From Mantamonas sphyraenae STR306 (Eukaryota; Protista; CRuMs): 64,000 nucleotides of DNA. Each line of letters begins with the position of its first letter. Position 1 is the first letter of the stretch. Below are positions 10,693-55,159 of the stretch, one piece after another. The translations under genes were made by a program, and so were the position numbers. The DNA is taken from assembly GCA_026936335.1 (NCBI GenBank), contig JAPMXV010000050.1, positions 186,001-250,000 of the forward strand, given 5' to 3'. Under the pieces are notes generated by a model. The model saw only the letters and a program-made list of their open reading frames with translations, was not told where the DNA came from and did no database searches.

Positions 10693-12642
10693 ATGGGTGT
10701 GGGTTGGAGTGCGGAGCATTCGGTGGCGTCCTCCAAGGCGAGCATGGACCATCGACACGTGAGCCAGAGTGCTGTGTGGCAGGAGCTGGATCCGGAGAGC
10801 GGCGAAGAGATTGAAGTTGGCCGCAGCAGCACAAGCAAAGAGGGAGAAGAAGTGGAGGACGGGGTGGAGGGTGCTGTACACGAGGATAAGGAAGTGGTTC
10901 GTGAGGCACGTCTGCGCAGTGTGTTGTCACCGGGCACGCTGTTGAGTCTGTTGGATCACGAACGGGTGACGATTCCTGATTTGTTCCACAGCCTGGGCAG
11001 CATGGACGAGGGCCAGGAGCGTGCGTGTGTGATGTTCCGCAGTGAAGAGGAAGACGGCCACACGTGGTCGCCGTACGAGACGCAAAGTTGCAAGGAGGTG
11101 GGGGACAGTCTGCGAGCCGCGTGTGCAGGCTTGCAACGTTTGGGCGTGGACACGGGTGACATGGCAGTGGTGGATGCAAACAACAGCGGAGGCATTGGAC
11201 ATCGCCTGGCCATGTATGCATGCATGCAGCAGGGTCTTCCTGTGGTGATTGCGCCGCGAGGGCAAGTTGCAAGTGCGGCGCATGCCTTTTCCGCCTCTGT
11301 GCTCGTGTGTGACAACAATGTGGCACGGCAACTGCTGGACAGCAGCAGTGGACGTGTGCACTTGGGTGCTGTGCGTGTGGTGGTGTGTGCATGTGCACCG
11401 AGTGCCGAGCTGACCAAGCTGGCTGAACAGAGCGGCGCCAGCGTGGTGCACTGGGCTGAACTGGTGGCCATGGGCAAGTATGTGGAGGAGGTGGATGTGG
11501 TGGATGTGGATGTGGACAGTGCAGGCTTGCTGGTGGTTGTGGAGCGCGATGACGATGCCGAGGGCGAGAGCGACGGCGAGTCGGGCGTTCTGGTCTACTC
11601 GTTCTCTCAGGCCCAGGTGATGGCAGGTGTGTCTGCCATTGTGGCGAGTGATGCGTTGCATGTGGACGAGGAGACGGTGATGATGAGCAGTGTGGGAGGA
11701 GCTCAGGTGCAGGTGGATGTGGCAATGCAGCTGGCAACGTTGTTGGCCGGCGGATGCGTGGTGATCCCGTCGCAGTCGGTGGGGGGCGTGCAGGAGGACA
11801 TGCAAATGAGTGCTCCCAATGTGTGGGTGTGTACAGACGCCGAGTTGATGGGAGTGGTGCATACGGTGGCGAAGCATGTGGCGGGCAAGTCGGGCATGTA
11901 TCGATATCTGTTTGGCATGGGCTATGAGGACAAACAGGCGGCCCAAATGACGCAAGAGGGCAGTCGTGTGTGGAACGGCCTTTTGTTCAACGGCTTGCGT
12001 GAGCTTGTGGGACTACAGAGCAAGGATGCACGGGTGCTAAACGTGGGCAATCCTGTGCCACGGGCGGTGGTGGAATTTGTGCAGTGTGTGTTGGACGTGG
12101 AGGTTGTACAGGTTCTATTTGACCGTCGCGTGTGTGGTCTGGTGTCATACGAGCGCCTGGATGCACGTGGCCTGCGTTCCGGCGGCCTCCTACCCTGCCT
12201 GGAGGTGCATCTGCGTCCCGGTGCGCAGTGGCGTATGCGTCTGCGTGGCCACAGTGTGTGCACGCGCGTGACTCGGCTCGTTGGGGAGGATGTGAGGCAG
12301 AGTGAGGATGCACAGGAGACAGCCGTGGAGGAGCTGACCACACCGCACATGTGTGTTCTCAACGACGACCTCAGCGTGCACTGGCTGGGACGTGTGCAAG
12401 ACCTGCACGCAGGCGTCAACATGCGCCTTGTAGAAAACATTGTGCGGACGAGTGACCACGTGGCACAGGTGCATGTCACGGGCGACGGAGACGACGACGA
12501 CGCGTTGTTGCACATTGTGGTGCATCCACGAGACGACACAGATGCAGACGCAGACGGCATCGAGCAGGAAGCCAAGTTGCTGTTGAAGCGGGCCGGAGTG
12601 CGGCTGAATGTGCATGTGGAGGTGGCTCAGGCTGCCCAATGA
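10693..12642 (+). CDS. Degenerate long-chain acyl-CoA synthetase-like (AMP-binding fold) protein
   Basis: LACS-like blocks (LQRLGVDTGD, VWNGLLFNGLRELVG, GNPVPRAVVEFVQ, GGLLPCLEVHL, WLGRVQD, VENIVRTSDHVAQV) but no YTSGTTGxPKG signature; start uncertain. Confidence 0.6.
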   Translation: MGVGWSAEHSVASSKASMDHRHVSQSAVWQELDPESGEEIEVGRSSTSKEGEEVEDGVEGAVHEDKEVVREARLRSVLSPGTLLSLLDHERVTIPDLFHSLGSMDEGQERACVMFRSEEEDGHTWSPYETQSCKEVGDSLRAACAGLQRLGVDTGDMAVVDANNSGGIGHRLAMYACMQQGLPVVIAPRGQVASAAHAFSASVLVCDNNVARQLLDSSSGRVHLGAVRVVVCACAPSAELTKLAEQSGASVVHWAELVAMGKYVEEVDVVDVDVDSAGLLVVVERDDDAEGESDGESGVLVYSFSQAQVMAGVSAIVASDALHVDEETVMMSSVGGAQVQVDVAMQLATLLAGGCVVIPSQSVGGVQEDMQMSAPNVWVCTDAELMGVVHTVAKHVAGKSGMYRYLFGMGYEDKQAAQMTQEGSRVWNGLLFNGLRELVGLQSKDARVLNVGNPVPRAVVEFVQCVLDVEVVQVLFDRRVCGLVSYERLDARGLRSGGLLPCLEVHLRPGAQWRMRLRGHSVCTRVTRLVGEDVRQSEDAQETAVEELTTPHMCVLNDDLSVHWLGRVQDLHAGVNMRLVENIVRTSDHVAQVHVTGDGDDDDALLHIVVHPRDDTDADADGIEQEAKLLLKRAGVRLNVHVEVAQAAQ

Positions 12643-12689
12643 AGATGATGAAGACGATTGCCAGCTGCGCTTGCGGGACCAGGGCCCGA

Positions 12690-13193
12690 ATGTCGCAGCA
12701 GTCAGTGCAGGAGACGTTTGCCCAGTTGGATGAGGCGGAGGAACACGTGTTGCAGCTGTTGGAGCTGACGATGTCCCTGCTGGACGAAATGCAGGCAGCC
12801 ATGGAGGTGGCGAGGGAGTTGCCGAAGGAGGGGATTGGCCAGGAAGCGAGGGCCATGCTCGAGCAGAAGCTGGACGGCCATTCCAAAGCGGCGAGGGGCT
12901 ATGCAAAGTCGTTTTTGGACACAGTCAAGGTGAGTGTGGTGGATGGGAAGCAGCTGCTTGGGTGTACGGGAGCCGAGAAGGGAGGAAGGAATCCATGCGC
13001 TGACTCGCGTGCGCTGTTGCAACAGGTGACACAAACGCTATTGGCGCAGCCATCGATTGCCAACAACTTTGAGCTGGTGAATTTCAATCGGCACATCAAC
13101 AACACACGTCAGCAGCTGGCCATCAACCTGCAAAAGGTGGATTTGGTCACCACACGCCTTTCAGAGGTCAAGGAACTGTTGTTGGATGATTGA
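12690..13193 (+). CDS. Mediator subunit 11-like small helical protein
   Basis: Helical pattern resembling Med11 (LDEAEEHVLQLLE...AKSFLDTVK...KVDLVTTRLSEV); in-frame intron 12930-13025. Confidence 0.5.
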   Translation: MSQQSVQETFAQLDEAEEHVLQLLELTMSLLDEMQAAMEVARELPKEGIGQEARAMLEQKLDGHSKAARGYAKSFLDTVKVSVVDGKQLLGCTGAEKGGRNPCADSRALLQQVTQTLLAQPSIANNFELVNFNRHINNTRQQLAINLQKVDLVTTRLSEVKELLLDD

Positions 13194-15149: not shown

Positions 15150-16183
15150 TTACTCGCGCGATCCACGGCCAGCACCGCGGCCTCCGCTGCGCTGCTGCGA
15201 ACGGTAGCCACCACGGCCAGCACCACGGCCTCCACCGTAGTTGGGCTTAAAGTCACCCTCGTCCTTGCCCTTGCGGAAGTTCTCGCCACCCTCCTGGCGC
15301 GGACCACGGGCAGAGGCAACACGCGTCGACTTCTTCAGCGTCATGGGGATCACGTCCGACGGCAGGTGCAGGAACTCACGCAGGTAGTCGATGCCCTCGT
15401 CTGTCAGGAACGCATACTTGTAGCGGAAGCAGTACGTCACACGCACGTACTTCAGGCTCTGTGTGTGTGTGTGTGTGCCAAGGGGTGGGGCGCGCGGTGT
15501 GTGAGCACTTTGGATTTCCTTCGCCGTTGTGGTTTTCCTTTCCCCGTTCTCCCGCATGCAGCACCCATCCAATGTCATCCACCTGTCCCTGCGCTTTCTT
15601 GGCATGCATGGGTGGCCACGGTGTGTCCACGTCGCCTGGGTGCTCCTCCTCCACCCTCCCCAGGCACGTTTCCCTCCACCAGCCCCTTTTTGCATGCTGC
15701 CCACAACTCGCTCTCCTTTGCCCTCCTGTGTCCACCCATCCCTCCTCCCTTCATCCATCACTCCCATCCCTCCTCCACCCACTCTCCATCCCACTCTCCA
15801 ACCCGGTCTCCTCCACCGCCACTCTCCCTTTCACTCACCTCCAGGCGCTTCATCAGCATCAGCACGTGCAGGTTGGGGATCTCACCCAGCTGCTTGTGCG
15901 ACTGCTGATGCACGTCGTGCTTGCACACAAGCACACCCTCTGTACACACCAGCACATCCATCCATCCCCACACGTCGTGTCGTCGTCCGTTGGTCCACCA
16001 CGGCCGTTGTACGTCCATTCTTTGTGTCAGCCGCCTTGCATTTCTCCCTCTGCCCGTTCCTTTCGCCGCCCCTTCCTGACGCTCCCTGCACCCTTTCCCA
16101 CCCCTCGCAACACCCTCCCCACACGCACCTTTGAACAGATAGCGGTAGACCAGCACACGCGTCTTCTTGGGAATAAGCACCAT
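15150..16183 (-). CDS. RPS10: 40S ribosomal protein S10 (eS10), copy 1
   Basis: MVLIPKKTRVLVYRYLFK|EGVLVCKHD...IPNLHVLMLMKRLE|SLKYV...LTDEGIDYLREFLHLPSDVIPMTL, RGG-rich tail; two introns. Confidence 0.97.
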
Positions 16184-16199
16184 GTTGAATTCGGCTGCC
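15150..16199. repeat. Direct repeat unit 1 of the duplicated RPS10 locus (partner 24507-25553)
   Basis: Near-identical exons, intron 1 and the 5' part of intron 2; identity ends at the stop codon and about 16 nt upstream of the ATG. Confidence 0.95.
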
Positions 16200-21609: not shown

Positions 21610-23242
21610 CTAGCCTGTGATCTGCACGCCCGCTTCCAAGACACGCATCTTGATTCTCCTCGCCCCCTGCCTTGCCAGCCAGTCCTGCGCCAACTCCCAA
21701 TCGTCCGTCGACTCGAGTGCCGTCCACCCATCCTCGTCGCGATACTCGATGGAAAAGTCACACAGGCCTGTGGCCTCCTGCACCATCTGCTGCAAATCGC
21801 CAAACGTTGCGTCGGCGTCCACTCGTTTGCGCTTGCCCGTCACTTCGTCTGTCGAAGAACGCACAATCTCCATGCGCACCGTCACCTTTGCACCCTTGTT
21901 TGCCTTGTCATTGTTGTTGCTGCTGCTGTTGTTGCTACTGCTGCTGCTGCCTGGACCTTGCTGCCTACCCGTTCGACGTCCCCCTCGCCCTTCCACTCTT
22001 TGCCGACCTCGTGGGCCCACGGCTGCTCGCCAAAATCCACTTCCACCACCTGCTCGCTCCTGTCCTTGTCCAGGCTGATGGTGTGCACCACCGCCAGCGG
22101 CTCACGTTGCTCGTCCCAAAAGTGGATCTTCATCGGCACGTCAAAGTAGCCCCACACCGACATGGTCAGCTCAAACGGGGCCTTGTCCAACACCTGATGC
22201 GGATCCTTGAACGTTTCGTGCAGTTGCACCTCCACCTTGCGCACAAAGCTGGGTGCAGGGGCTCCTGGCACACCGCCCACATACAACGTCACATGGTGCT
22301 TCTTGCTCACCTGCCCCACGCTGTGTGTGTTGCCCACGTGCAGTTCCTTCAACAGACGGAACCGTGGGATCTGCATCTCCATGTAGCCCAGCACACGCTC
22401 CATAAACTCGTCCGTCTTGCCAAACACCCGCAGGTGTGCCTCGTCGTCCAGGTGTGTCTTTTGCAGGTTCACAATCACCAGCTTGCAGCCCTTCTTGTTC
22501 TTCAGCGCCTGCACCGGCATGTCGTTTGCAGGTGACACCGTCAGCGACGAGCCCAGCACCACAAACACGTCGGCCTTGCGGCTGTTCTGGTACGCCGCCT
22601 CCAGGTGGTCCTCCGGCAGCGATTCCCCAAAGTGGATGATCGAATCGATCAGCGCCCCTCCACACTTGTCACAATCGCGTCCTGTGCTGTGGTAGTGCGC
22701 CACACGGTTTGGGCCGTGGTGGTTCATCACGTCGAAATCCCGACGTGCTCGAGCCTTGCAGTCCAGGCACTCCTCCACGTAGCAGTTGCCGTGAAGCTCA
22801 GCCAGACCATTCAATCCACTTCGCATATGGAGTCCGTCCACGTTCTGTGAAATTGTGAACCTCAGCACGCCTGTGTGGTCGTCCATGGCGTTTGTGGGAA
22901 TCGCGTCAGAATTCGGCGAGTGAAATCTGAACTCTCCCGTTTCCGTCACCCACCTGCATCCTCCAACGCCTTCATCGCCATGTGTGTGCGTCCAGGCAGA
23001 GCCTGTTCGATGGAAATGGACTTGGGCGGCGCCAATCCTTTGTCTCGTCGTGTCCACACGCCATCCGCAGAGCGAAAGTCGGGGATGCCGCAGCCTGTGC
23101 TGATGCCTGCCCCAGTGAAGAACACCGCGTGTTTGCTGTTGCTCAGCAGATCAGCCAATTCACGTGCGTGTTCATCCAGCACATCCTCGTCTTCCAGATA
23201 CGCCTGGATGTCTTCGTCTTCCCGTCCCAATTTGCCACTCAT
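21610..23242 (-). CDS. Class IV (SIRT6/7-like) sirtuin fused to a YEATS domain and a probable C-terminal PB1 domain
   Basis: GAGISTGCGIPDFR, SQNVDGLH, ELHGN, CxxC..CxxC, LGSSLTVSPA, IVNLQKT; then in frame YEATS (VGNTHS, FVRKVEVQLHETF, APFELTMSVWGYFDVPMKIHF); PB1 acidic motif (IEYRDEDG...STDDW) in a shifted frame after about 21960; intron 22871-22953. Confidence 0.9.
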
Positions 23243-23283: not shown

Positions 23284-23698
23284 TCACCCACTGCTTAAAT
23301 CCATGCCCAGTCGTTTGCCAAACGCAGCCACTTCTGCATTGGTGACTTCATCCTGCGCCGTTTCCTCCTCCTCCCCCTTGCCTGGGCCCCAGAACGGCGG
23401 CGGCGAGGCCATTCGTTTCACACGCTCCTCCAGCGTCTCCTCCTCCTTGGTCCCGTGTGTTGTGTGGCCATTGTCCTTCTGCTTGACGACTGTTCTTCCC
23501 TTCCTTCCCTTCTTGCGCTTCTTCTTCCTCTTTGCCTTTGTGCCAGTGCGCGGGTTCATCCCGTTGTCCACCCCGTCGTCAAAGTCCTCCCCAAGCTGCG
23601 CTGCAAGCTCCTCCACGCTCAACTGTGCATTCGCACGCTGCGCCAATGCCAATCGAAGCTTCTGGGCCACTTCCGTCTCTGTCTCCCGTTCACTCATG
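23284..23698 (-). CDS. Hypothetical small protein with basic NLS-like tract
   Basis: Intact 137-codon ORF filling the gap between the sirtuin and ISCA2; KAKRKKKRKKGRK. Confidence 0.5.
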
Positions 23699-24506: not shown

Positions 24507-25537
24507 TTACTCGCGCGATCCACGGCCAGCACCGCGGCCTCCGCTGCGCTGCTGCGAACGGTAGCCACCACGGCCAGCACCACGGCCTCCACCGTAGTTG
24601 GGCTTAAAGTCACCCTCGTCCTTGCCCTTGCGGAAGTTCTCGCCACCCTCCTGGCGCGGGCCACGGGCAGAGGCAACACGCGTCGACTTCTTCAGCGTCA
24701 TGGGGATCACGTCCGACGGCAGGTGCAGGAACTCACGCAGGTAGTCGATGCCCTCGTCTGTCAGGAACGCATACTTGTAGCGGAAGCAGTACGTCACACG
24801 CACGTACTTCAGGCTCTGTGTGAAGAGAAGGAGGCGGCCAGACGCAAACGCGCAATGTTGGCGCAAAATTGGGGTGAGCACATGCGCCCGTTTCCTGTCT
24901 CTCTGCTTCGTTCTCCTGCCCTCTACATCCTCCACCTCTATGCACTGATGTGTCTGCATGCATGGGTGGCCACGGTGTGTCCACGTCGCCTGGGTGCTCC
25001 TCCTCCACCCTCCCCAGGCACGTTTCCCTCCACCAGCCCCTTTTTGCATGCTGCCCACAACTCGCTCTCCTTTGCCCTCCTGTGTCCACCCATCCCTCCT
25101 TCCCTTCATCCATCACTCCCATCCCTCCTCCACCCACTCTCCATCCCACTCTCCAACCCGGTCTCCTCCACCGCCACTCTCCCTTTCACTCACCTCCAGG
25201 CGCTTCATCAGCATCAGCACGTGCAGGTTGGGGATCTCACCCAGCTGCTTGTGCGACTGCTGATGCACGTCGTGCTTGCACACAAGCACACCCTCTGTAC
25301 ACACCAGCCCATCCATCCATCCCCACACGTCGTGTCGTCACCCGTTGGTCCACCACAGCCGTTGTACGTCCATTCTTTGTGTCAGCCGCCTTGCATTTCT
25401 CCCTCTGCCCGTTCCTTTCGCCGCCCCTTCCTGACGCTCCTGCACCCTTTCCCACCCCTCGCAACGCCCTCCCCACACGCACCTTTGAACAGATAGCGGT
25501 AGACCAGCACACGCGTCTTCTTGGGAATAAGCACCAT
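24507..25537 (-). CDS. RPS10: 40S ribosomal protein S10 (eS10), copy 2
   Basis: Same exon structure and apparently the same protein as 15150-16183. Confidence 0.97.
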
Positions 25538-25634
25538 GTTGAATTCGGCTGCCGTAGCAAGCGCCCTTTTCCATTAACACACAACCCACAACCCACAGCA
25601 CAACACAACTCGCTCCTCAATGTCGTCCGCTCGC

Positions 25635-27782
25635 TCACGCCACATCCATGGCACTTCCGCTTCCACTGCTGCTACTGCTGCTGTTGCTTCCTGCGCTGCT
25701 GCCGCCGTTGCGTTGGCGCATCTGCACTGTTCGCAGCCTGTTGATGGCCGCCGCCAGGTCGTAGATTCGCGGACGTGCATAGTCGCCTGTGGCACGACGC
25801 GGGTTGACCACATCGAGACCCACCTCTGCATCAAAGGCCTCGTCAAGCTTGGTGAGCATCTCCTGCAGGGTGAGGGAGTTGTCCATCAGCGTGTCACGCA
25901 GAAAGATGATGGCATCGCCAATGCAGCGCACCTGCGATCGGTCCGTGAGCTGCTCAATGGCCCCAAGGTCGATTTCGGTCATGCCAAACCCAATGCTGCG
26001 GTCCTTGACCTTGATCTTTTCCTTGTTGCCACGGTAGGCGTTGAAGGAGCTTGCCACAGGGATGCGCTCCACAATGTCCACAAACTCGGTGTCTGCGTGT
26101 GCACTGATGTTGCTCGGGTTCTCCAGCGCAATCTGTTTGGCCTCCTGCGTCAGATCCGAAGCCGAGTACGAATCCATGGCAATCACACAGTCGGCCACGT
26201 CAAAGTACTCGCCTGCGCCACCAATCACCATGATGGTGCTCACGTTCAGCTTGTCTTTGATGTGTTCCACCCGCGAGATGAACGGTGTGATCGGCTCCTT
26301 GTCCTTGCTGATCAGCTTGGCCATCCTGTCCGATCGCAGCATGAAATTCGTCGCGCATGTGTCCTCGTCCAACAGCAGCAACCTTGAACCCATCTCCAGA
26401 CTTTCCAGAATGTACGCTGCCTGTGACGTCGACCCACTTGCGTCCGGTGTGGAAAAGTCGTCTGTGCGTTTGCCAAACGGCAGGTTGTCGATGAACGGCG
26501 TGATGTTCACGCCTGCAATTGACCGACCATCCTCGGCACGAATCTTCATGGCGCTGTCCACACACGAGACGAGCTCGCGGCCGTCACCGGGCACGTGGTT
26601 GTACACTCCCAGGGAAATGGCGTTGAGGAGGGTGGACTTGCCGTGGAAGCCACCGCCGACAATGAGGGTGATGCCTTCAGGGATGCCCATGCCTGTGACA
26701 CTGCCCTGGTTGGGCAACTCCACAGTCACCTCCAACGACGGCGGGCTGGCAAACAACACCGCCTCGTTCTTGCGCATGGGCTTGTCCGACGCACCACTCT
26801 CACGCGGCAAAAGGGCCCCATTGGCCACAAAGGCCACCAGGCCCAGGGAAGGCAGCTGTGTGCGCAGGTGCTCCTGGTCCTCCACGCTTTCCACGTGCGC
26901 CTGCAGCGACTCGCCGTCCAGCGAGGCATACATCAAACAATCACGCACCGCATTGGGGATACACTCGCAGCAGACGTAGGCGGCCATGCGACCCATGATG
27001 GTGCGTCCTCGTGCGGGCATGCCCACGGTGAAGCGGGCCTCGACGTAGTCCGCGTTGATGCTGATCGAAGTGCGTTGCAACACGTGCTGCGACGGCCGAT
27101 CCATGCTCAGGTCGCCTCCCTTTGCTCCATGCCAGCCTCCTCCGCCACTGTTCTGCACTTGGTCAAACTTGCGGTTGTGCAGGTAGTCGCAGGTGACGCG
27201 TGTGACGTAGTCCTCTGCAGCCACCTGTCGCACAAGGGTCTTGTACAGCTCGCTGGGGAATCCTGCCACGTCTGCAGGCACCACTGCACGGAAGCGTGAC
27301 GGAGCAGCATATGGATCCGACTGCACATAGTCGCACACCAGCACAAAGTCGCCAAAGTCGTAGCCCACCCCACGGATGTCGTTGTACGCCTTGTACGACT
27401 TGCCGTCCAGGTAGTTCAGTGTGTCACTCAGTGCTTCGCCCGTCGCGCTTGCTTGCGGTGCCTCCACACGTTCCAACGACGGAATTCTGCCTGTTGCCTT
27501 GCTCGTGTCCACCTGCTGGTTGTTGTTGTTGTCGTAGCTGTCGTAACCACCCCCACCACCTCCACCTCCATGGTGCCTTCCTCCTCCACCACCTCCTCCA
27601 TACTTGTTCTTGTAGTAGGCTCCTCGTCCACCACCACCACCTCCTCGGCCTCCGCCTCCACCACCGCCTCCTCCTCCTCCTCGGCCTCCGCCTCCACTGC
27701 GTCCTCCACCGTACTTGTTCTTGTAATAGTTTCCTCGGCCGCCTCCGCCGCCGCCGCGTCGATGATGTCCTCCTCCACTCAT
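25635..27782 (-). CDS. ABC-class ATPase (COG3044/PF09818, MRB1590-like) with Gly/RGG-rich N-terminus
   Basis: DYVQSDPYAAPS, MPARGRTIMG, LPRESG, Walker A GGGFHGKSTLL, HVPGDGRE, DASGSTSQAA, Walker B LLLDEDTCATNF, EPITPF, AAAINRLR; intronless. Confidence 0.92.
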   Translation of the reverse strand: MSGGGHHRRGGGGGGRGNYYKNKYGGGRSGGGGRGGGGGGGGGGGRGGGGGGRGAYYKNKYGGGGGGGRHHGGGGGGGGYDSYDNNNNQQVDTSKATGRIPSLERVEAPQASATGEALSDTLNYLDGKSYKAYNDIRGVGYDFGDFVLVCDYVQSDPYAAPSRFRAVVPADVAGFPSELYKTLVRQVAAEDYVTRVTCDYLHNRKFDQVQNSGGGGWHGAKGGDLSMDRPSQHVLQRTSISINADYVEARFTVGMPARGRTIMGRMAAYVCCECIPNAVRDCLMYASLDGESLQAHVESVEDQEHLRTQLPSLGLVAFVANGALLPRESGASDKPMRKNEAVLFASPPSLEVTVELPNQGSVTGMGIPEGITLIVGGGFHGKSTLLNAISLGVYNHVPGDGRELVSCVDSAMKIRAEDGRSIAGVNITPFIDNLPFGKRTDDFSTPDASGSTSQAAYILESLEMGSRLLLLDEDTCATNFMLRSDRMAKLISKDKEPITPFISRVEHIKDKLNVSTIMVIGGAGEYFDVADCVIAMDSYSASDLTQEAKQIALENPSNISAHADTEFVDIVERIPVASSFNAYRGNKEKIKVKDRSIGFGMTEIDLGAIEQLTDRSQVRCIGDAIIFLRDTLMDNSLTLQEMLTKLDEAFDAEVGLDVVNPRRATGDYARPRIYDLAAAINRLRTVQMRQRNGGSSAGSNSSSSSSGSGSAMDVA

Positions 27783-41622: not shown

Positions 41623-43494
41623 TCACCAGTTCTCCTTGAGCCAGTCTCGCCAGTTCTTGCCTGCCTTTGTGTTGCCATCGGGCGCAGCGTCGCTGTCGAG
41701 GTTGCCTTGCTGGTCAACCGAGGCACGCACAGGCCTGCCCTTGCGTGTGGGACGCGTGTGTGCGCTCGCCATGCGTTCGTCTCGTGTTTGCTTCTGCTCG
41801 CGTGCCTCGAGCTGTTGTTCGTTGAGGGCGCTGATCTTGCGTGTGTGTGTCTTTGCACTTGTGCTGGGACTTGCAGCCACGCTCTTGTCTGCACGCACTG
41901 TCTGCATGCCGCCCATTCCGGTGATAATCACGCTGACGCGCACCCTTCCGTCCAGGGTGGAGTCGAAGCTGCTGCCAAAGATGATGTTTGCATCCGGATG
42001 CACCTGCTCACCCACAAAGTTGCTCACTTCGTTGATTTCAAACAAAGTCAGGTCGTTGCCGCCGCTGACGGAGATGAGCACCCCTCGCGCATCCTCCACG
42101 TCCACGTTGGCCAGCAGCGGGTTCTTGAGTGCCGCTTTGGCTGCATCCAGGGCCCGTGTGTCGCCTCCTGCCTCGGCTGTGCCCATGAGGGCCTTGCCGG
42201 CGTCCTTCATCACCGTTTTGACGTCGGCAAAGTCTAGGTTGATGAGACCCGGCTGGATGATGAGGTCTGTGACGCCCTTGACGCCTCTGTACAACACGTC
42301 ATCGGCCATGCGAAAGGCATCGGCAAACGTGGTCTGCTTGCTGGCCATGCGCAGCAAATTTTGGTTGGGAATGACAATCATGGTGTCCACGACGCGCTCC
42401 AGCTCAATCATCCCCTGGTCCGCAAGGCGTTGGCGCTGTTTGCCCTCAAACCCAAAGGGTTGTGTGACCACGGCCACGGTGAGCATGCCTGCCTTTTTGG
42501 TGTGTTCGGCAATGACCGGAGCGGCGCCTGTTCCGGTGCCTCCACCCATGCCAGCTGTGATGAACACCATGTTGGAGCCCTGAATGTGTTGCATCACCTC
42601 TTGGATGCCCTCTTGGGCAGCCTCGCGTCCCACGTGTGGTTGTGCGCCTGCGCCGAGCCCCTGGGTTACGGTGGCGCCAAGTTGCACGCGCTTCTCGCTC
42701 AGCGAGTCACCCAGTGCCTGTGCGTCTGTGTTGGCCACCACAAACTCCACGCCAGCCAGCTGCGAGGCAATCATGTTGTTGACTGCGTTTCCGCCAGCGC
42801 CGCCGACGCCGATGACGCTGATCAGCGGGGTGGTGGCGAAATCTGAGCGGGAAAACACGCGAGACGGTGTTAGCGAGCGAATGCCAAAACGTATGCCATG
42901 GACACAGTGCACAGGGGGTCACTCACTAAACACTTCACTCTTGGTGCGCTTTGTCTGCGTCCTGGTCTGCTGTTCGTGGGCCGGGGCCTGTTGTTCGGCA
43001 GCTTGGGTCGTGCGCGGACGACGCGGTTTCACGGGCGGCTTGCCTTGCATGCGCTTGTTGCGTGCCTCGAGGATTTCTGCACGCGACCGACGTCTCTGCT
43101 TGAGCATCTGGTCGACCTGGTCAGCGTCGTCCTGGTCGCTGCGTGCACAGGGCGTGGTGAACACGGGCCGGTGCGTGGAGGCGAGCACCGAAGCTGGATT
43201 TTGGCGGGAAGAGGCCGAGGGGACGATGTTAGTGGACGATGCAGATGATGCATAGCATGGAAGGATGTGTGTGTGTGCGTGTATGTTTGGCGAGAGGAAG
43301 TGCGGGGTGTGTTTGAGTGCACGTACCTTGCGGCATGCGTGTACGACGAGCAGCAGCACGAGCAAACTGGCAGGGTTGGGAATCCGTGTGTCAGCGCGAG
43401 GATGGATGAGAAGGAAAGCGGCGGGGAAGGAGGATGGACCCAAGCGGTGGATGATGGTGGAGGGTGGTGGTGGAGGGTGATGGTGGGGTACCAT
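41623..43494 (-). CDS. ftsZ: Mitochondrion-targeted FtsZ
   Basis: [54 protein letters not shown]; spliced N-terminus [23 protein letters not shown] is presequence-like; introns 43367-43491, 43194-43326, 42843-42926. Confidence 0.95.
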
Positions 43495-47998: not shown

Positions 47999-48985
47999 AT
48001 GGGTCGGAAGAAGAAGGCGCTGCTGCCGGACTACTATGGCAACGACAGCAACGAAGACATCCTGGGCCTGGAATGGGAGCACAGGAAGAAGGAGGACAGG
48101 CGGCAGGGCAAGGTGTTTGACCTGGCGCCGGGAGAGGTGGAGCGAAGCAGCAATCGAGGCAAAAGCAAGGCACGGCTGAAGCGCGAGGCAAACAAGGAAG
48201 CGGCAGCACTGGCAAAGAGGAAGCGGCAGCAGGAAAAGCGAGCTCGCAAGCGGGAGCGAGAGGCGGCAGGTCTTGAGGAGGAGTCGGAAACGGACGGGAA
48301 GCGAGCACGAGCGGGGGTGGCGAACGAGGGCGGCGGAAGCAGCAGCAAGAAGAAGAAGAAGAACAAGAGGAAGAAGGAGTCGCGAGAGATTAAGCCAGTG
48401 AAGCTGCTGGACGCGGGCAAAGAGGTTGTTTTTGAACCACGGCGGGAGGGGGAGTCGCTAAAGGCGTTTCGCATTCGCATCAACCAGGCGACGAGCGAGC
48501 GGCTGGCAGCCATCGAGCGGAGGCAGAACGGAGTGAGCGAGAAGCGCAAGGCGTTTCTGAAGGGACGCAAGGAGAAGGAAAAGGCACGAAAGGCAGGGGT
48601 GGTGGAGGTGGACAAGGAAGAGCTGGAGTACGACGAGCACGGGAACTTGGACATGCGGAACAAGCGTGTGGTGGAACGGGAGCTGGATGATGAGTTTGGC
48701 CATGCGGAAAAGGTGGAGTATGGTGACGTGGTGGATGCACCGCCGAAACTGCGTGTGCGGCCGCGGCTGAAGAAGACGACGCAGATGCTGGTGGATGCCA
48801 AGAAGAAGATGGAGGCAGCGGCAGCGGCGGCGGCAGGCAAGCAGGAAAAGAAGAAGAAGGCACAGCTGCGTGACCAGGCGTATGCGGCGCTGCGTGAGCA
48901 GGTGAAGCAAGCGTACAAGGAGCAAAAGGTGCGTGCGCGTAGCGAGCGCGGCGAGGGTGGAGAAGGAGCGGCAAGCTACTTGTGA
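47999..48985 (+). CDS. CCDC137-like basic nucleolar coiled-coil protein
   Basis: RREGESLKAFRIRI, EKRKAFL, EKVEYGDVVDAPPKL, LREQVKQAYKEQK. Confidence 0.7.
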   Translation: MGRKKKALLPDYYGNDSNEDILGLEWEHRKKEDRRQGKVFDLAPGEVERSSNRGKSKARLKREANKEAAALAKRKRQQEKRARKREREAAGLEEESETDGKRARAGVANEGGGSSSKKKKKNKRKKESREIKPVKLLDAGKEVVFEPRREGESLKAFRIRINQATSERLAAIERRQNGVSEKRKAFLKGRKEKEKARKAGVVEVDKEELEYDEHGNLDMRNKRVVERELDDEFGHAEKVEYGDVVDAPPKLRVRPRLKKTTQMLVDAKKKMEAAAAAAAGKQEKKKKAQLRDQAYAALREQVKQAYKEQKVRARSERGEGGEGAASYL

Positions 48986-49009
48986 GTGGGGTTGCACTCC
49001 TTTATTTTT

Positions 49010-51502
49010 CTACTCTTGTTTGTCGTCTGTGGAAACGGGCGGAAGGCCACGAAAGAGGGTGCGGGCGGGGTCGGGGTGGAGGAGATTGGCGAGGACGAGG
49101 ACGTTTGTGGCGTAGTAGACAGCGGTGGCAAGGAGCTCCCATCGGAGGGGGCCGCCACGGAAAAGGTACTCGTGGGTGAGCCAGAGGAGGGCAGAGAGGG
49201 ACACGGGGGTGCCCGAAGTGTACAGGAGAGCGGGAAAGGCGTAGAAGTACCAGCACATAAACGGAGTGTACAGGCCGCGTGCAAGGGTGACAAAGATGTG
49301 GTTGGTGGCAAAGAGAGAGACGGCAAAGAGGCGCTGGTGGTGGGAGAGGGTGTGTGCGCGTGTGTGGTGTGCGCGGAGGCGGAGGAAGAAGAGGGCAAGG
49401 AGGATGAGAATGGTGACGAGGGTGGCGCGGTGGAAGAGCGGGCTGTCGTAGATGTGGCGACCAACAAACTTGAAGTTGCGTGTCTTTTCCCAGAGGAGGG
49501 TGCGTGAGAGATCAAAGGCGGTGGCAATGTAGGCGTGTGCGTTTGCGCGGAGGAAGGGGTAGCCGACGATGAGCTGCGTTGCCAACATGTAGACACCCTG
49601 CATGATGGTGGAGGTGAGCCCCAGGTGGGAGAGGTAGAGGTAGAGCATGGCTGGGCCGTAGAATACAAAGTTGAGCTTTGTGGAGAGGACAAAGGAGTAG
49701 AGGACGGAGGCGGCGGTCCAGCGACGACGGAGGAGGAGGGCGATGACAAGGTACATGAGAAGGACGGAGGGCATGTCGTTGATGACAACGCGGACGTTGT
49801 AGAGGTGGAGGCGATTGGAGAGGAACGGGAGAAGGGCAAGGAGGGGCGGGATGCGGAGATGGTCGCGGGTGAGACGGTAGGTGAGCTGGAGGAGGGCAGC
49901 CTCGAGAAGGGCCCAGAAGAGCTGAAAGGCGAGGAGGGAGCCGCTGGTGAGGCGGACGAGGAAGAGGTAGAGCCAAACAAAGCCTGCCGGGTAGGTGTTT
50001 GGGCCATGGTAGTGCATAAAGGCGGCATAGTTGCGTGTCTGTTCGTGGTCAAAGTGACGTATGTGGTGGAGGTGTGCGGGCCAGTCGTTGACAAAGGCAG
50101 GCTGTGCGAGAGCCTCAAAGATGGAAAAGGCGAGGAGGCCAGCGGTGAGGAGGGAGGCAATGTGGTCTGCGTAGCGTGTTGGAGTGGCAAGGCGGGGCGC
50201 AATGGCTGTGTCGATGGCATGAAAGACGGGCTGGATGGAAAAGAGGAGGATGAGGGTGACAGCGACGAGGAGGTAGGTCTGGGGCTGTTTGAAGAGACCG
50301 CGATCCTGGAGCTTGGAGTCGAGCGGGGCGGGTGGGAGATAGAAGGAGGAGATGCGTGCGACAGATTGGCAGTTGGGAACCTGCGGGGCAGCAGAGCGAA
50401 AGACGAGGAGGCCTGCATCTGTGGCAAGGAGGAGAAAGTCGTGTCGGAAGCGATGGAAAGCCAGGGCATTGATGGAACGGTTGAGACGCAGGTGTTGGAT
50501 GGGAGTGTAGGATTCGTTGTGAGGGGTCCAGCCATAGAGAGAGATGGCGCCTGAGGAAGCATGTGCTGTGGCAATGAGGCGACCGTCGGCAGAGGCAGCG
50601 AGGAGGTCTATGGGGGCATGGGGCGTGAGGAGCTGGATGCGCTCTGTGAGGGAGTCGTAGACAGAGACCGAGTGCGGGGACTCGATGCGAAGCATGGCCG
50701 AGTGGACACGATGAGAAGGGCAGAGGGCACGGTCAAACTGGAGGGTGTTTGGAGCGTGTTGCGGGGCGAGTGGTCGTGGTGGATGGTGGGGCTGGTCGAG
50801 GTCGAGGGCGTGCCAGGTGGACTGGTTACGCATGTAGAGGAGGTGATCGTAGTGTGAAAGGCGCATGTGATGTGCGTGGATGAGGCGAGAGGCGTTGTGT
50901 GGGCGCTGATGCATCTGCGGGTGGTTGCGGTCGAGGAAGCGAGGGCCGGAGGGGCGGAGGAGGTGTTGAGGGAGCGGGTCAAAGGACCAGACGTTTTGGT
51001 AGTCGTCCTGGGGAAAGATGACTTGGGCGTGGTTGAGGACGGGAGGGTTTGTGCGGCCGTCGACGAGGCGTGCGGCAGGAAGGACGAGGAGGATGGAGTG
51101 GTCGAGGAGGACGTGGAGGTAGGTTTGGTTTGCAGAGAAGGCACAGTGTGTGATGGAATGGGTGTGGAAGCGGTGGGGAAGGCGGAGCTTGGCGTAGTAC
51201 AAGTAGGGCCAGTGGGTTGATGCGTAGAGGGACGGGTACATGAGGACGCGGTAGACATTGATGGAGTTGTCTGCAAGGCAGGCGGCAATGTGCTCCTGGG
51301 AGTGGGAGATTGCAAGGGCACGCACGGGAGCGGAGCGCTCTGTGTGTGTGTCGAGGCCTGGGGCAGAGCGGCCTCGGAGGAGCTGGAAGTGGGCGTAGGA
51401 TGGGGCCGGGTGGGTGTCGATGGGAGCAGGCACGGGCACAAGGAGGTGCATGAAGAGAGGGAGGGCGAGGAGGGAGACAAGGAGGAGGTGGGACGTTTGC
51501 AT
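49010..51502 (-). CDS. ALG3-family GT-C mannosyltransferase-like protein with N-terminal WD40-like domain
   Basis: NDW...GPNTYPAGFVWLY, LSNRLHLYNVRVVIND, STKLN, AFDLSRTLLWEKTRNFKFV, FATNHIFVTLARGLYTPFMCWYF; N-terminal signal and WD-like strands (VRALAIS...DNSINVY; ASADGRLIATAHASSGAISLY). Confidence 0.82.
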   Translation of the reverse strand: MQTSHLLLVSLLALPLFMHLLVPVPAPIDTHPAPSYAHFQLLRGRSAPGLDTHTERSAPVRALAISHSQEHIAACLADNSINVYRVLMYPSLYASTHWPYLYYAKLRLPHRFHTHSITHCAFSANQTYLHVLLDHSILLVLPAARLVDGRTNPPVLNHAQVIFPQDDYQNVWSFDPLPQHLLRPSGPRFLDRNHPQMHQRPHNASRLIHAHHMRLSHYDHLLYMRNQSTWHALDLDQPHHPPRPLAPQHAPNTLQFDRALCPSHRVHSAMLRIESPHSVSVYDSLTERIQLLTPHAPIDLLAASADGRLIATAHASSGAISLYGWTPHNESYTPIQHLRLNRSINALAFHRFRHDFLLLATDAGLLVFRSAAPQVPNCQSVARISSFYLPPAPLDSKLQDRGLFKQPQTYLLVAVTLILLFSIQPVFHAIDTAIAPRLATPTRYADHIASLLTAGLLAFSIFEALAQPAFVNDWPAHLHHIRHFDHEQTRNYAAFMHYHGPNTYPAGFVWLYLFLVRLTSGSLLAFQLFWALLEAALLQLTYRLTRDHLRIPPLLALLPFLSNRLHLYNVRVVINDMPSVLLMYLVIALLLRRRWTAASVLYSFVLSTKLNFVFYGPAMLYLYLSHLGLTSTIMQGVYMLATQLIVGYPFLRANAHAYIATAFDLSRTLLWEKTRNFKFVGRHIYDSPLFHRATLVTILILLALFFLRLRAHHTRAHTLSHHQRLFAVSLFATNHIFVTLARGLYTPFMCWYFYAFPALLYTSGTPVSLSALLWLTHEYLFRGGPLRWELLATAVYYATNVLVLANLLHPDPARTLFRGLPPVSTDDKQE

Positions 51503-51507
51503 TGACC

Positions 51508-53608
51508 TCAGAAGGAGACGATGGTGTTGTCGATGGGTTGGCGGCACTGGGGACATGAAACGAGGGAGGAGGCGCAGCGTTGGCAGATGGTGTGGCGGCA
51601 GGGTTGGAGGAGAGTGTCGATCTTGTTGTCAAGGCAGACGGGGCAAAGGACCTCGTCGAGGGAGGCGTTGAGTGTTTCGATGAGTTTGTCCTTGGCTTTG
51701 GAGACGGCCATGAGGCCAGCGAGGTGTGTGTTTTCGAGGGATTTGAGCTCTTTGAGGGAGAGGGTGTGGAGATCTGTGGGGTTTTGGAGGTTGGACAGGG
51801 TGGTGCGGAGGGCTTGGTTTTCCTCGCTGAGGGTTTTGAGAGAGGTTGTGAATGGGGAGGGAGAGGAGGTTGTTGTGGTTGTGGTGGATGCTTGGAGCTG
51901 TGCGTCGAGGAGCTGTTGTTTGAGGGTGTCGATTTGGGAATGGAGCTCTGCGATGAGGGCGGATTGGTCGAGGGTGGGTTCGGGGATGGAGGAGGAAGAG
52001 GAGGAGGTAGAGGAGGAGCTGGTGGTGCTGCGCAGGAGGCGGTCAAGGTCTGCCTGGGCCTGGTTGGCTTCGGTGAGCTGTTTGGAGAGGGATTGTTTGT
52101 CGTGAAGGAGATCGGAGGCAGTGGCAAGGAGGCAGAGATGTGTGCGCTCGTCACGGCCAAGGTTCTCGGAGAAGGAGGACATGGTGAGGGCAAGGTGGCG
52201 GATGATGGTGTCTGCGGTGAGGACCTCGCTGCAGTGGCAGTGGCTGCGGTTTGCAGAAAGGCAGGTGTCGTGGAGGAGCGCATTGTGGACCCAGTTGTTG
52301 TCGAGGAGGTGGATGGAGAGGCAAAGGGAGGCGGGGGACGGGCCAGAGTCGATGTGGAGGTGCTCAGAGGCGAATTGGACAAGGGAGAGGGAGTCGAGCT
52401 TGAGGTCTGGGAGGTGGGTTTGGGTGATGGACAGAGCGGCGGCGAGGCGCGAGACCTGGGTGTTGGAGAGGTCTGCAATGTCGATATGGCGGAGGACTAG
52501 GTCGACGCTGGCTGTGGTTTGCTTGGTGGCGTTGAAATGGGCTGTGATGAGGGAGGCCAGGGTCTCGGAGACCGGAACCGGCTCGAAGCCAAGGGTGGTG
52601 AGCTCGGCGAGCTCTGTGGTGGAGGCGTTGTGGACAGGAAAGGCAGAGGGGCCGTTTTGGTCTATGAAATTGGTGGCCAGGAGGGAGAGGGTGCTGTCTG
52701 AGAGGTGCCATCGGGCCTGGGCGACGTCTGCGGTGACGCGGCCCTGATTGAGGAGGTCAGCATACCGAGGCAGGAGGTTTGGGTGTGTGCGTACGGCCTC
52801 GGCCCAAGCGGCAGAGACGGCGGTGGCGAGGTCGCCGGCCTTGACGATGGCGCGGCGGTCGCGATCAATGTCGAGGGTGGGGAGATCGACGCCCGTGGCG
52901 AGGTCGTCGACGTCGGCGACAAAGAACTGCTTGACGTAGAGCTTGCCCGCGTATGAGTCGCCGAGAAGGAGGGTGCCGTGGGAAGTGCGCACGCACTCGT
53001 CGGGGGGCGTGAGGAAGAGGAAGTTGGGTGCGAGTTTGGCCCAATCGAGGTCTGGAAGCTGGATGACGGTGCGTGTGTCGTCGGGATTGAGGGAGGTTGT
53101 GTCCAGTGGGCTGATTTCGATGGAGAGGACGCGCTCGCCGCCAAACTCGTCGTCGGCAAGGAGGCAGAAGGTCCACAGCTCGCGGTTGGTTTCCATTGGA
53201 GATGCGGGCGCCGTTGCGGATGAGGGCGAGGGCTCCGACCTTGAAACCCTCGCCAAACTGGCCGACACTTTTTGCGTCGTTGCGCTTGGAGGAGGCGCCG
53301 ATGAGGAGGACCTTGCGGGCGAGGGAGACGTGGTGGTTGAGGAGAGTGATGGAGAATTCCCCGTGGTCGACGGAAATGGAACCGAGCGGAGTGCGGGAGG
53401 TGGACACGTTGACGTCGCGGTAGGCGGTGTAAGTGTGGTTGTTGAAGGCCTGTTGTGTGTCGATGGCCACGCCGGTGGAGTCTGCGGCGTCGTTTACGCC
53501 GTCCCACCAATTCTGCACAAACTCTCTCAGGCCGTCCTGTGGAGTCCAGAAGGGGGCGTAGTCTGCGGTGAGGCTGAGTTTGATGGTGGAGGGTGACGGA
53601 GTGGACAT
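51508..53608 (-). CDS. GHKL (Bergerat-fold) ATPase + coiled coil + C-terminal RING-HC protein
   Basis: LSLTADY..WT..DGLREFVQNWWD (N-box), LLIGASSK, VGQFGEGFKVG (G-box), LDIDRDR; RING CPVC...PCRH.IC..C...CPQCR; 1-nt frameshift near 53196. Confidence 0.8.
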
Positions 53609-53661
53609 GGAGTCTGATGTGCAATGCGAAATGGGTTTTGATTGAGTTGTGCCGTGCACGC

Positions 53662-55079
53662 TCACGCCGACTCGATGGTGGAGCCAGAGTTTGCTGGGAG
53701 GCCGAGGCCAAAGGGATCCTCCTGTTCGTGGAGACCAGCCTCGGTGTGGAATTTGTCGATGTGGTCGCTGACGGCAACGCTGAGGGATTCGTCGTGGCGT
53801 TGGACGTCGACGTCGTGGACGTGACTGACCTCGAGAGCAAGGAAGCGGGAGGAGGAGGAGGAGCGGCGGGTGAGGGAAGGGCGAGGGCGCTGTTTGGGCT
53901 GGGCCTTTTCTGTGGAAGAGGCAGAGGCAGAGGCAGAGGCAGAGGCAGCGGGGGCCTGTGTAGGCTCCTGGGCGTGTGTGCCGTCGTCCTGGGGCGAGTT
54001 GCCAAAGCCGAGGCCAAACACGTCTTCGTCGTGGTCCATGACGGGCTCCTTTTCGTGGTGGAGGAATCCAGTGAGCTGTGGCGAGATGGTAGAGTCTGCA
54101 TGGGGCGGGACGGCAGCGTCGAGGGCGTCGACATTGAGGTGGAGGAAGGAGGAGCGGCGTCTAAGTTGTTCTGCGGCGTCTTTGGTTTGGTCGTCGTCGC
54201 CGCGGAGGCCAAAGGGGTCCTCTTGCTGTTCATGGAGCTGCTGGTCGGCTTGGGCGAGCTTGGGAGCGGCGTTTGCTTTGACGGCGGCGACGTTGAGGTG
54301 GAGAAATGAAGTGCGGCGTGTGTTTTCGGGAGGAGGAGGATGGGTTGTGTGGTCATCGTCGTCACGGAGGCCAAAGGGGTCCTCCTGTTGTTCGTTGAGC
54401 TGTTGGTCGGCCTGGGCTTGCTGCGGGGTGGAGGCCGGGCCGAGGGCGGCGAGATCGAGGGTGAGAAACTGCTTCTTGCTGGGGAGGGTTGCTTCTGCGC
54501 CGTGGCCGAGGCCAAAGGGGTCTTCGTCGGCGTGCATGCGTGCCTCTGTGGGAGCCACGGCGATGCCCGTGTCGGCGAGGGTTTCTGTTTGCACGGTGAG
54601 AAAGCGAGGGGCCGTGCGTTTCCTGAGGCGCATCGGGGGAGCACTTTGGGGCGTTGTGGAAGAGGTGGACGAGGAGGAAGAGGACGAGGAGGAGGAGGAG
54701 GAGGCGAGGTCTGCGTCTTGGGCGAGAACAATGCCAAAGGGGTCGTCGTGTTCGTCGCTGGGCTGTGCGTGTGCAGGCTGGGTGGAGGGCGAGGGCACGT
54801 TGATGGAGAGGAAGCCCAGGGATTTCGACCGCGAGCGCTCTGGGGCTTGTTTTCACGCTGGGCTCGCCAGGCCTGGATGTTTTCTGTGGTAAAGACGTCG
54901 TGGTCGGTGGCAGAGTCGTCTCCAAAGCCAATCTGGAAGACGTCCTCGCTCTCGTGGAGCTCTGCGTCGTCGAGCGGTTTGCGCTGGGCGACAGGCGGGG
55001 CCTGTGTGTTGATGCTGAGCCTTGCGGCAAAGCCAGCCTTCTTTGAGGCGGCAGGAGAGGATGGGGTGTCTTCAGACAT
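53662..55079 (-). CDS. Intrinsically disordered protein with about 7 alternating FLxLxV and EDPFGL motifs
   Basis: Repeats visible in DNA (gccaaaggggtc on +) and protein; 1-nt frameshift in a C-run near 54843. Confidence 0.75.
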
Positions 55080-55159
55080 GGCGGGGTTTGGTTTGGGTGG
55101 GGTTGGGCGGGGTCGGGAGAAGGCGAGGCACGCAGCCGGGGCAAAAGCAAAACGGTTCG

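Follow-up and report, generated by a model that had tools for sequence, protein, structure and literature searches.

A SIRT6/SIRT7-like sirtuin fused to a YEATS domain, and probably to a PB1 domain, in Mantamonas sphyraenae

A sirtuin gene in compact eukaryotic DNA

The window analysed here is a stretch of 64,000 nucleotides from Mantamonas sphyraenae STR306 (GenBank assembly GCA_026936335.1, contig JAPMXV010000050.1, positions 186,001 to 250,000), and all positions are counted from its first letter. It consists of compact, intron-bearing eukaryotic DNA of approximately 60% GC. A minus-strand gene begins with an ATG at 23242 and, once spliced, provides a frame of 425 amino acids that ends at a TGA (21884-21882). 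This frame encodes a sirtuin that runs into a YEATS domain. Its features are as follows.

22954 to 23242, minus strand: exon 1, with the start codon and the N-terminal half of the sirtuin (Pfam, motifs)
23113 to 23069, minus strand: GAGISTxxGIPDFR motif in exon 1
23062 to 23051, minus strand: class IV GVWT motif in exon 1
22871 to 22953, minus strand: 83-nt phase-1 intron with a GTGGGT donor, a CTGAC branch point at 22909 and a CAG acceptor (inferred from sequence and frame continuity)
22359 to 22870, minus strand: exon 2, with the remainder of the sirtuin (Pfam, motifs)
22847 to 22827, minus strand: QNVDGLH motif in exon 2
22799 to 22785, minus strand: ELHGN motif with the catalytic His in exon 2
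22769 to 22758 and 22673 to 22662, minus strand: CxxC pairs in exon 2
22553 to 22542, minus strand: GSSL motif in exon 2
22029 to 22349, minus strand: YEATS domain adjoining the sirtuin (Pfam PF03366)
22223 to 22209, minus strand: LHETF motif of the YEATS domain
22157 to 22143, minus strand: VWGYF motif of the YEATS domain, with Val at a conserved Gly position
21882 to 21884, minus strand: TGA closing the sirtuin-YEATS frame as assembled

The SIR2 profile (PF02146) matches both exons above its cut-off, at 32.2 and 77.1 bits, and the GAGIS, QNVDGLH, catalytic HG, paired CxxC and GSS elements of sirtuins are all present. In the PDB, the best matches of both exons are SIRT6 and then SIRT7; for exon 2 these have E values of 8e-34 and 2e-28, and the next sirtuin follows at 7e-22. 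Together with the GVWT motif, this places the enzyme in class IV, an assignment made by similarity rank rather than from a tree that includes classes I-III. A sequence-only reading of this DNA had proposed a complete class IV sirtuin in frame with a YEATS domain. Pfam bears this out, and the motifs and coordinates quoted in that reading are correct; the 83-nt intron inside the sirtuin had been overlooked.

Several neighbouring features were recorded. A Lys-rich open reading frame of 137 amino acids (23284-23697, minus strand), with no significant Pfam match, ends 41 nt before the sirtuin ATG. The gene for ribosomal protein S10 is present in two copies that are 99% identical, introns included, at 15150-16199 and 24507-25553, about 9.4 kb apart. 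The minus strand also carries an MRB1590-like ABC-class ATPase (25638-27782), whose Gly-rich N-terminus contains repeated YYKNKYGG, and an FtsZ-family gene (41626-42918), perhaps of the mitochondrial type. A very G-rich region of about 6 kb (48980-55167) contains several open frames with neither a Pfam match nor a coding call from the codon model described below.

The acyl-lysine cage and YEATS folds among relatives

The YEATS profile PF03366 matches in the sirtuin frame at 62.4-65.4 bits (cut-off 22; E 3.9e-17 at 62.4 bits), so that the profile check suggested in the earlier reading is positive. The nearest solved structures are those of GAS41 and Yaf9 (E 4e-12 for GAS41). The cage retains its His, Thr, Phe, Trp and Phe, and the segments H-E-T-F and W-G-Y-F align with H-E-S-Y and W-G-E-F of GAS41. 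The claim that both cage segments are conserved thus stands for these five residues. It does not stand for the Gly before the cage Trp, which is present in 21 of 21 cage-bearing relatives and is replaced here by Val (22157-22155), through a codon that lies a single base away from a Gly codon.

Relatives were collected by searches with exon 2. The 248 distinct homologs comprise the best 120 of 349 matches, restricted to lengths of 180-574, and a further 128 taken from the best 150 of 6507. Both SIR2 and Pfam YEATS occur in 26 of the 248 homologs listed: 14 of the first 120 by precomputed annotation, one more on rescanning the first 30, and 11 of the further 128. Named relatives that bear the cage come from Mantamonas plastica, Gefionella okellyi and Oopsacas minuta. 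A scan of metagenomes with exon 2 gave 44 pattern matches, none of them a relative. In a FastTree analysis of 207 sirtuin half-domains, the Mantamonas query pairs with P0001 of M. plastica (0.975), and cage-bearing members are scattered over several weakly supported groups. Because this tree has no outgroup, we claim no order of events from it. In one homolog, P0067, the order is reversed and YEATS precedes the sirtuin, suggesting either an independent fusion or domain shuffling.

Many homologs that lack a Pfam YEATS match nevertheless have a conserved, beta-rich domain immediately after the sirtuin, at the position of YEATS in the query. A profile of these cage-less tails matches the profile of cage-bearing tails with a probability of 90% and a score of 38.2; a reversed control scores 12.9, and none of 30 column shuffles exceeds 14.75. 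One representative was modelled: the tail of P0013 (Cavostelium apophysatum), folded with 93 other cage-less members, reached a pLDDT of 95.9. When this model was compared with 48,161 solved chains using VIA-align, YEATS domains took the first eight places (Z 9.3-11.2; rmsd 2.2-3.6 over 91-103 residues), and the next chain scored 6.6. Foldseek also ranks YEATS structures first, with E values of only about 1e-3, and an atlas feature search gave leads only (0.87 and 0.81). The predicted structure of this cage-less tail matches YEATS domains better than it does unrelated beta-sandwiches.

Among the listed homologs with tails of at least 80 amino acids, 163 of 180 match either the YEATS or the cage-less profile, compared to 0 of 180 reversed tails; since the same tails went into building the profiles, this count is circular in part. 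The other 68 of the 248 homologs were dropped because the tail was too short or was not detected. The cage motif is intact in 19 of the 163 matching tails and absent from 144, so acyl reading may not be the role that the fold has in common. In three homologs (P0002, P0121 and P0124), a canonical YEATS domain is present in addition to the cage-less fold. A cage-less form of YEATS likely follows the sirtuin in most of the relatives found, possibly in plants too. The fold has likely long belonged to this sirtuin subfamily, with the cage retained in a minority of members and lost from most.

The case for plants depends on two homologs, a lycophyte protein (P0243) and a second plant-type locus (L001), which we take to be of the SRT1 type. 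A WEDAL motif quoted in the passages seen of a rice SRT1 preprint supports this label. The first ~110 residues past the sirtuin core of these two sequences match the YEATS profile with a score of 38.2, compared to at most 16.7 when shuffled, and they have no cage motif and no Pfam match. A model built from three sequences (pLDDT 59; best Z 3.9, with no YEATS match) is too poor to judge the fold. The atlas feature search again gave leads only, with an unnamed entry at 0.82 and a pYEATS/YEATS cluster at 0.76, and a search that used the plant-type tail as query recovered, among 54 candidates, nothing but the query. The plant SRT1-type tail is thus possibly a YEATS derivative, as judged by profile similarity.

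These relatives bear on whether the Mantamonas copy still reads acyl-lysine. The Val position presumably corresponds to G77 of AF9, judging from its place before Y78 and from YEATS alignments. In the portion of a preprint that describes it, the AF9 G77A mutation abolishes binding to H3K9la (bioRxiv 2025.06.18.660498), so acyl reading by the Mantamonas copy may be impaired. Either the reader is weakened or retuned, or the Val base is a sequencing error. The domain could instead be a non-reading structural or protein-docking appendage that is drifting toward the cage-less state of most relatives. The Gly-to-Val change and the AF9 result are what such an appendage would predict, as are the 144 tails without a cage motif and the partly lost cages of P0010, P0123, P0128 and P0181, which appear as intermediates in the alignment. 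However, every other cage residue is present in the Mantamonas copy, the Val codon is one base from Gly in an assembly that apparently has errors elsewhere (see below), and the AF9 evidence, in the part of the preprint seen, concerns the lactyl mark only. We consider the non-reading alternative a real one that is somewhat doubtful. Continued acyl-lysine reading by this copy is close to an even call, and we hold to it only tentatively.

The PB1 segment and its frame junction

Downstream of the YEATS domain, the strand continues to code in a frame that is offset by one base.

21947 to 21968, minus strand: change of reading frame through one missing base, with an indel in the assembly as the most likely cause (codon model)
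21889 to 21948, minus strand: Ser/Asn-rich linker, coding in the PB1 frame (codon scores)
21610 to 21888, minus strand: PB1 domain with an acidic OPCA-like motif, ending at a TAG stop at 21612-21610 (Pfam PF00564)
21750 to 21727, minus strand: IEYRDEDG of the PB1 domain
21717 to 21694, minus strand: LESTDDWE of the PB1 domain

The PB1 profile PF00564 matches at 27.4-28.3 bits (cut-off 23.6; E 2.1e-6 at 28.1) over model positions 15-81 of 84. This match, at 28.1 bits, agrees with the earlier description of a PB1-like domain with an acidic OPCA motif, 1 nt out of frame near 21960. The profile match and the acidic OPCA motif, together with an alignment to Cdc24, place the segment among PB1 domains. 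Self-polymerising (type I/II) PB1 domains have a conserved Lys in strand 1; at the likely equivalent position here the residue is Arg, as aligned by eye in a strand that lies outside the profile match. A basic KRKR stretch in the PB1 segment (21826-21815, minus strand) could be a nuclear signal or part of a PB1 basic face. Prediction of a PB1 homodimer scored 0.00 and gave no answer.

When nine long frames from other parts of the window were used to train a codon model, it located the passage from YEATS to PB1 coding at ~21947-21968; a single missing base separates the two frames. The 75 nt upstream of the first ATG in the PB1 frame (21873) have a coding score of 13.4 in that frame versus -18.7 in the YEATS frame. 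Of 19,686 non-coding windows, fewer than 0.01% reach 13.4. Taken alone, the 36 nt of this stretch that are not repetitive score 6.0, which is matched by 0.3% of 21,012. Other genes in the window also change frame without an intron in a parse of the whole window. One switch, at 867-870 on the minus strand, splits a Pfam domain of a dynein heavy chain, and two occur in a HYDIN-like gene on the plus strand (57428 and 59780-59792). All of these fall in low-complexity linkers. A possible further switch is located at 12626-12705 on the plus strand.

Since candidate introns at the junction lack a branch point and three other intron-less shifts interrupt conserved genes, an assembly error of one base is the most likely explanation, and PB1 probably belongs to one protein with the sirtuin and YEATS domains. 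The likely presence of indel errors in the assembly also matters for the interpretation of other frameshifts found in this window. If the assembly were correct, the protein would end at 21882, and PB1 would be a separate gene of 87 amino acids starting at ATG 21873, or else a recent and real frameshift would have removed it as a tail. A separate gene is possible because the Pfam PB1 match lies wholly downstream of this ATG and needs just that part of the sequence. The tight packing of genes, with a gap of 41 nt between the upstream open reading frame and the sirtuin ATG, is compatible with such an arrangement, as is the lack of PB1 among the listed homologs. Against it, only 8 nt would separate the stop from ATG 21873, the 75 nt ahead of it score as coding in the frame of PB1, this ATG is without the AC-rich context of those at 23242, 23697 and 27782, and similar shifts occur in three places in large conserved genes. 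We judge a correct assembly to be unlikely. The 47-nt GT-AG intron at 22007-21961 offered as an option in the earlier reading, any other short intron and a programmed frameshift are rejected as highly improbable: 45 GT-AG pairs restore the frame arithmetically, the 47-nt one included, but none has a YTRAY branch point, whereas the ~10 candidate introns of the window carry CTGAC or CTAAC by eye, 22016-21951 codes best in the YEATS frame, and no slippery heptamer was found in 21930-22030.

If PB1 is joined to the sirtuin and YEATS domains across a one-base assembly error, the fusion is a narrow one. PB1 is among the listed domains of none of the 248 homologs, eight of which, all Kelch-bearing, have domain lists that are cut short, and a direct search of all 248 with the PB1 segment gave a best E value of 0.85. 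A search of longer proteins found no match at E <= 10 among 125 candidates, which is weak evidence. The closest relative among the listed homologs, P0001 of M. plastica (51-54% identical), ends 37 amino acids past YEATS, without PB1. Together, the listed homologs and this closest relative indicate that PB1 is a lineage-specific addition, likely recent and predicted from its motif to present an acidic face to a partner PB1. Accessory domains are swapped freely among the homologs listed, which include zf-UBP, C1, Kelch, CAP_C, UBA, PUB and SUI1. This makes a one-off PB1 plausible and also less remarkable.

Proposed function and known systems

We slightly favour the view that the encoded SIRT6/7-like sirtuin-YEATS protein, likely with PB1 across a one-base assembly error, acts as a nuclear, NAD+-dependent lysine deacylase. 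YEATS would likely dock it on acylated histone tails, its affinity for them probably being reduced or changed. The activity and location are predicted by analogy with SIRT6 and AcSir2. The YEATS domain would grip one acyl-lysine or a substrate surface, and the sirtuin would remove a neighbouring acyl group; docking would use acyl-lysine binding if the cage still works. PB1 would be a late docking module, with its acidic face toward the partner. The self-targeting, possibly processive or spreading action proposed in the sequence-only reading would be a further conjecture, as would self-polymerisation through PB1.

A broader proposal is more tentative still. Outside bilaterian SIRT6/7, class IV sirtuins may have an ancient YEATS component that has been overlooked. 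In scattered protists it would act as an acyl-lysine reader, and fungi, ciliates, amoebae and plant SRT1 would retain it as a cryptic fold without a cage; the C-terminal domain of plant SRT1 would be a YEATS derivative. The Mantamonas copy with PB1 would then be an oligomerising reader-eraser.

An eraser and a reader of the same mark in one chain offer a simple test of how a reader affects the reach and acyl preference of an eraser, and this is the kind of experiment called for in the accessible text of the AcSir2 paper (PMC7376869). Many class IV sirtuins lack annotation, and the cryptic fold suggests concretely what their C-terminal domain may be, possibly in plant SRT1 as well. How reader domains are repurposed can be studied in a natural series that is already at hand, with the cage intact, partly lost or absent. 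The PB1 tail alone carries little weight until it is confirmed by reads.

The fusion of sirtuin and YEATS is known; the literature searched yielded nothing on how widespread it is, on the cryptic form without a cage or on the PB1 tail. Outside subscription journals, we found no paper on a wider sirtuin-YEATS family, on cryptic YEATS in SRT1 or on a sirtuin-PB1 fusion; older comparative-genomics reviews in those journals could mention the sirtuin-YEATS fusion. The term YEATS is absent from the main-text passages seen of PMC9486876 and bioRxiv 2021.11.30.470311, whose supplementary domain tables may list it.

In rice, OsSRT1 is described in the available portions of two preprints as having a distinct C-terminal domain, the role of which is called unclear (10.1101/2021.11.05.467508, 10.1101/2021.06.18.449075). 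One rice preprint states, in the part seen, that this domain is needed for catalysis, yet reports there that a construct without it is comparable to the full-length protein in activity, so support for the domain is mixed. Plant SRT1 resembles the Mantamonas gene in that the tails of two plant-type homologs match the YEATS profile, a comparison of profiles made with those two sequences.

The PB1 domains of Cdc24 and NBR1, which are signalling and autophagy scaffolds, match the Mantamonas PB1 weakly (E 0.03 and 0.3-0.5), with matches centred on the acidic OPCA motif. They differ in context, and fusion of a sirtuin to PB1 is found in none of the listed homologs.

Members of the YEATS family such as GAS41/YEATS4, Yaf9, Taf14 and AF9/ENL have the fold and most cage residues in common with the Mantamonas copy. 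However, they keep the Gly before the cage aromatic residue where Mantamonas has Val, and they are subunits of acetyltransferase, remodelling or elongation complexes that are not known to be fused to an eraser. Human SIRT6 and SIRT7 are the best solved matches of the sirtuin and have its NAD-binding, catalytic His, zinc and GVWT motifs. To our knowledge they contain neither YEATS nor PB1, and SIRT6 has ILDWED where the Mantamonas gene has IIHFGE.

The closest known system is AcSir2 of Acanthamoeba castellanii, a nuclear class IV sirtuin of 536 amino acids with YEATS at residues 443-524, whose overexpression raises sirtuin activity in nuclear extracts about fourfold, according to the accessible text (PMC7376869). 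That text calls AcSir2 unique, with no other SIR2-like protein containing YEATS, and asks for deletion experiments. The combination is not unique, since 26 of the 248 homologs listed here have both Pfam domains; the architecture that the sequence-only reading did not recognise from model organisms is, for its sirtuin-YEATS part, both published and common. AcSir2 is like the Mantamonas gene in joining a class IV sirtuin to a C-terminal PF03366 domain. It differs in that no PB1 is reported in the text seen (PMC7376869) and in that its YEATS domain lies ~130 residues past the core, rather than abutting it. AcSir2 may consist of a sirtuin, a cage-less fold and a YEATS domain, the layout found in P0002, P0121 and P0124.
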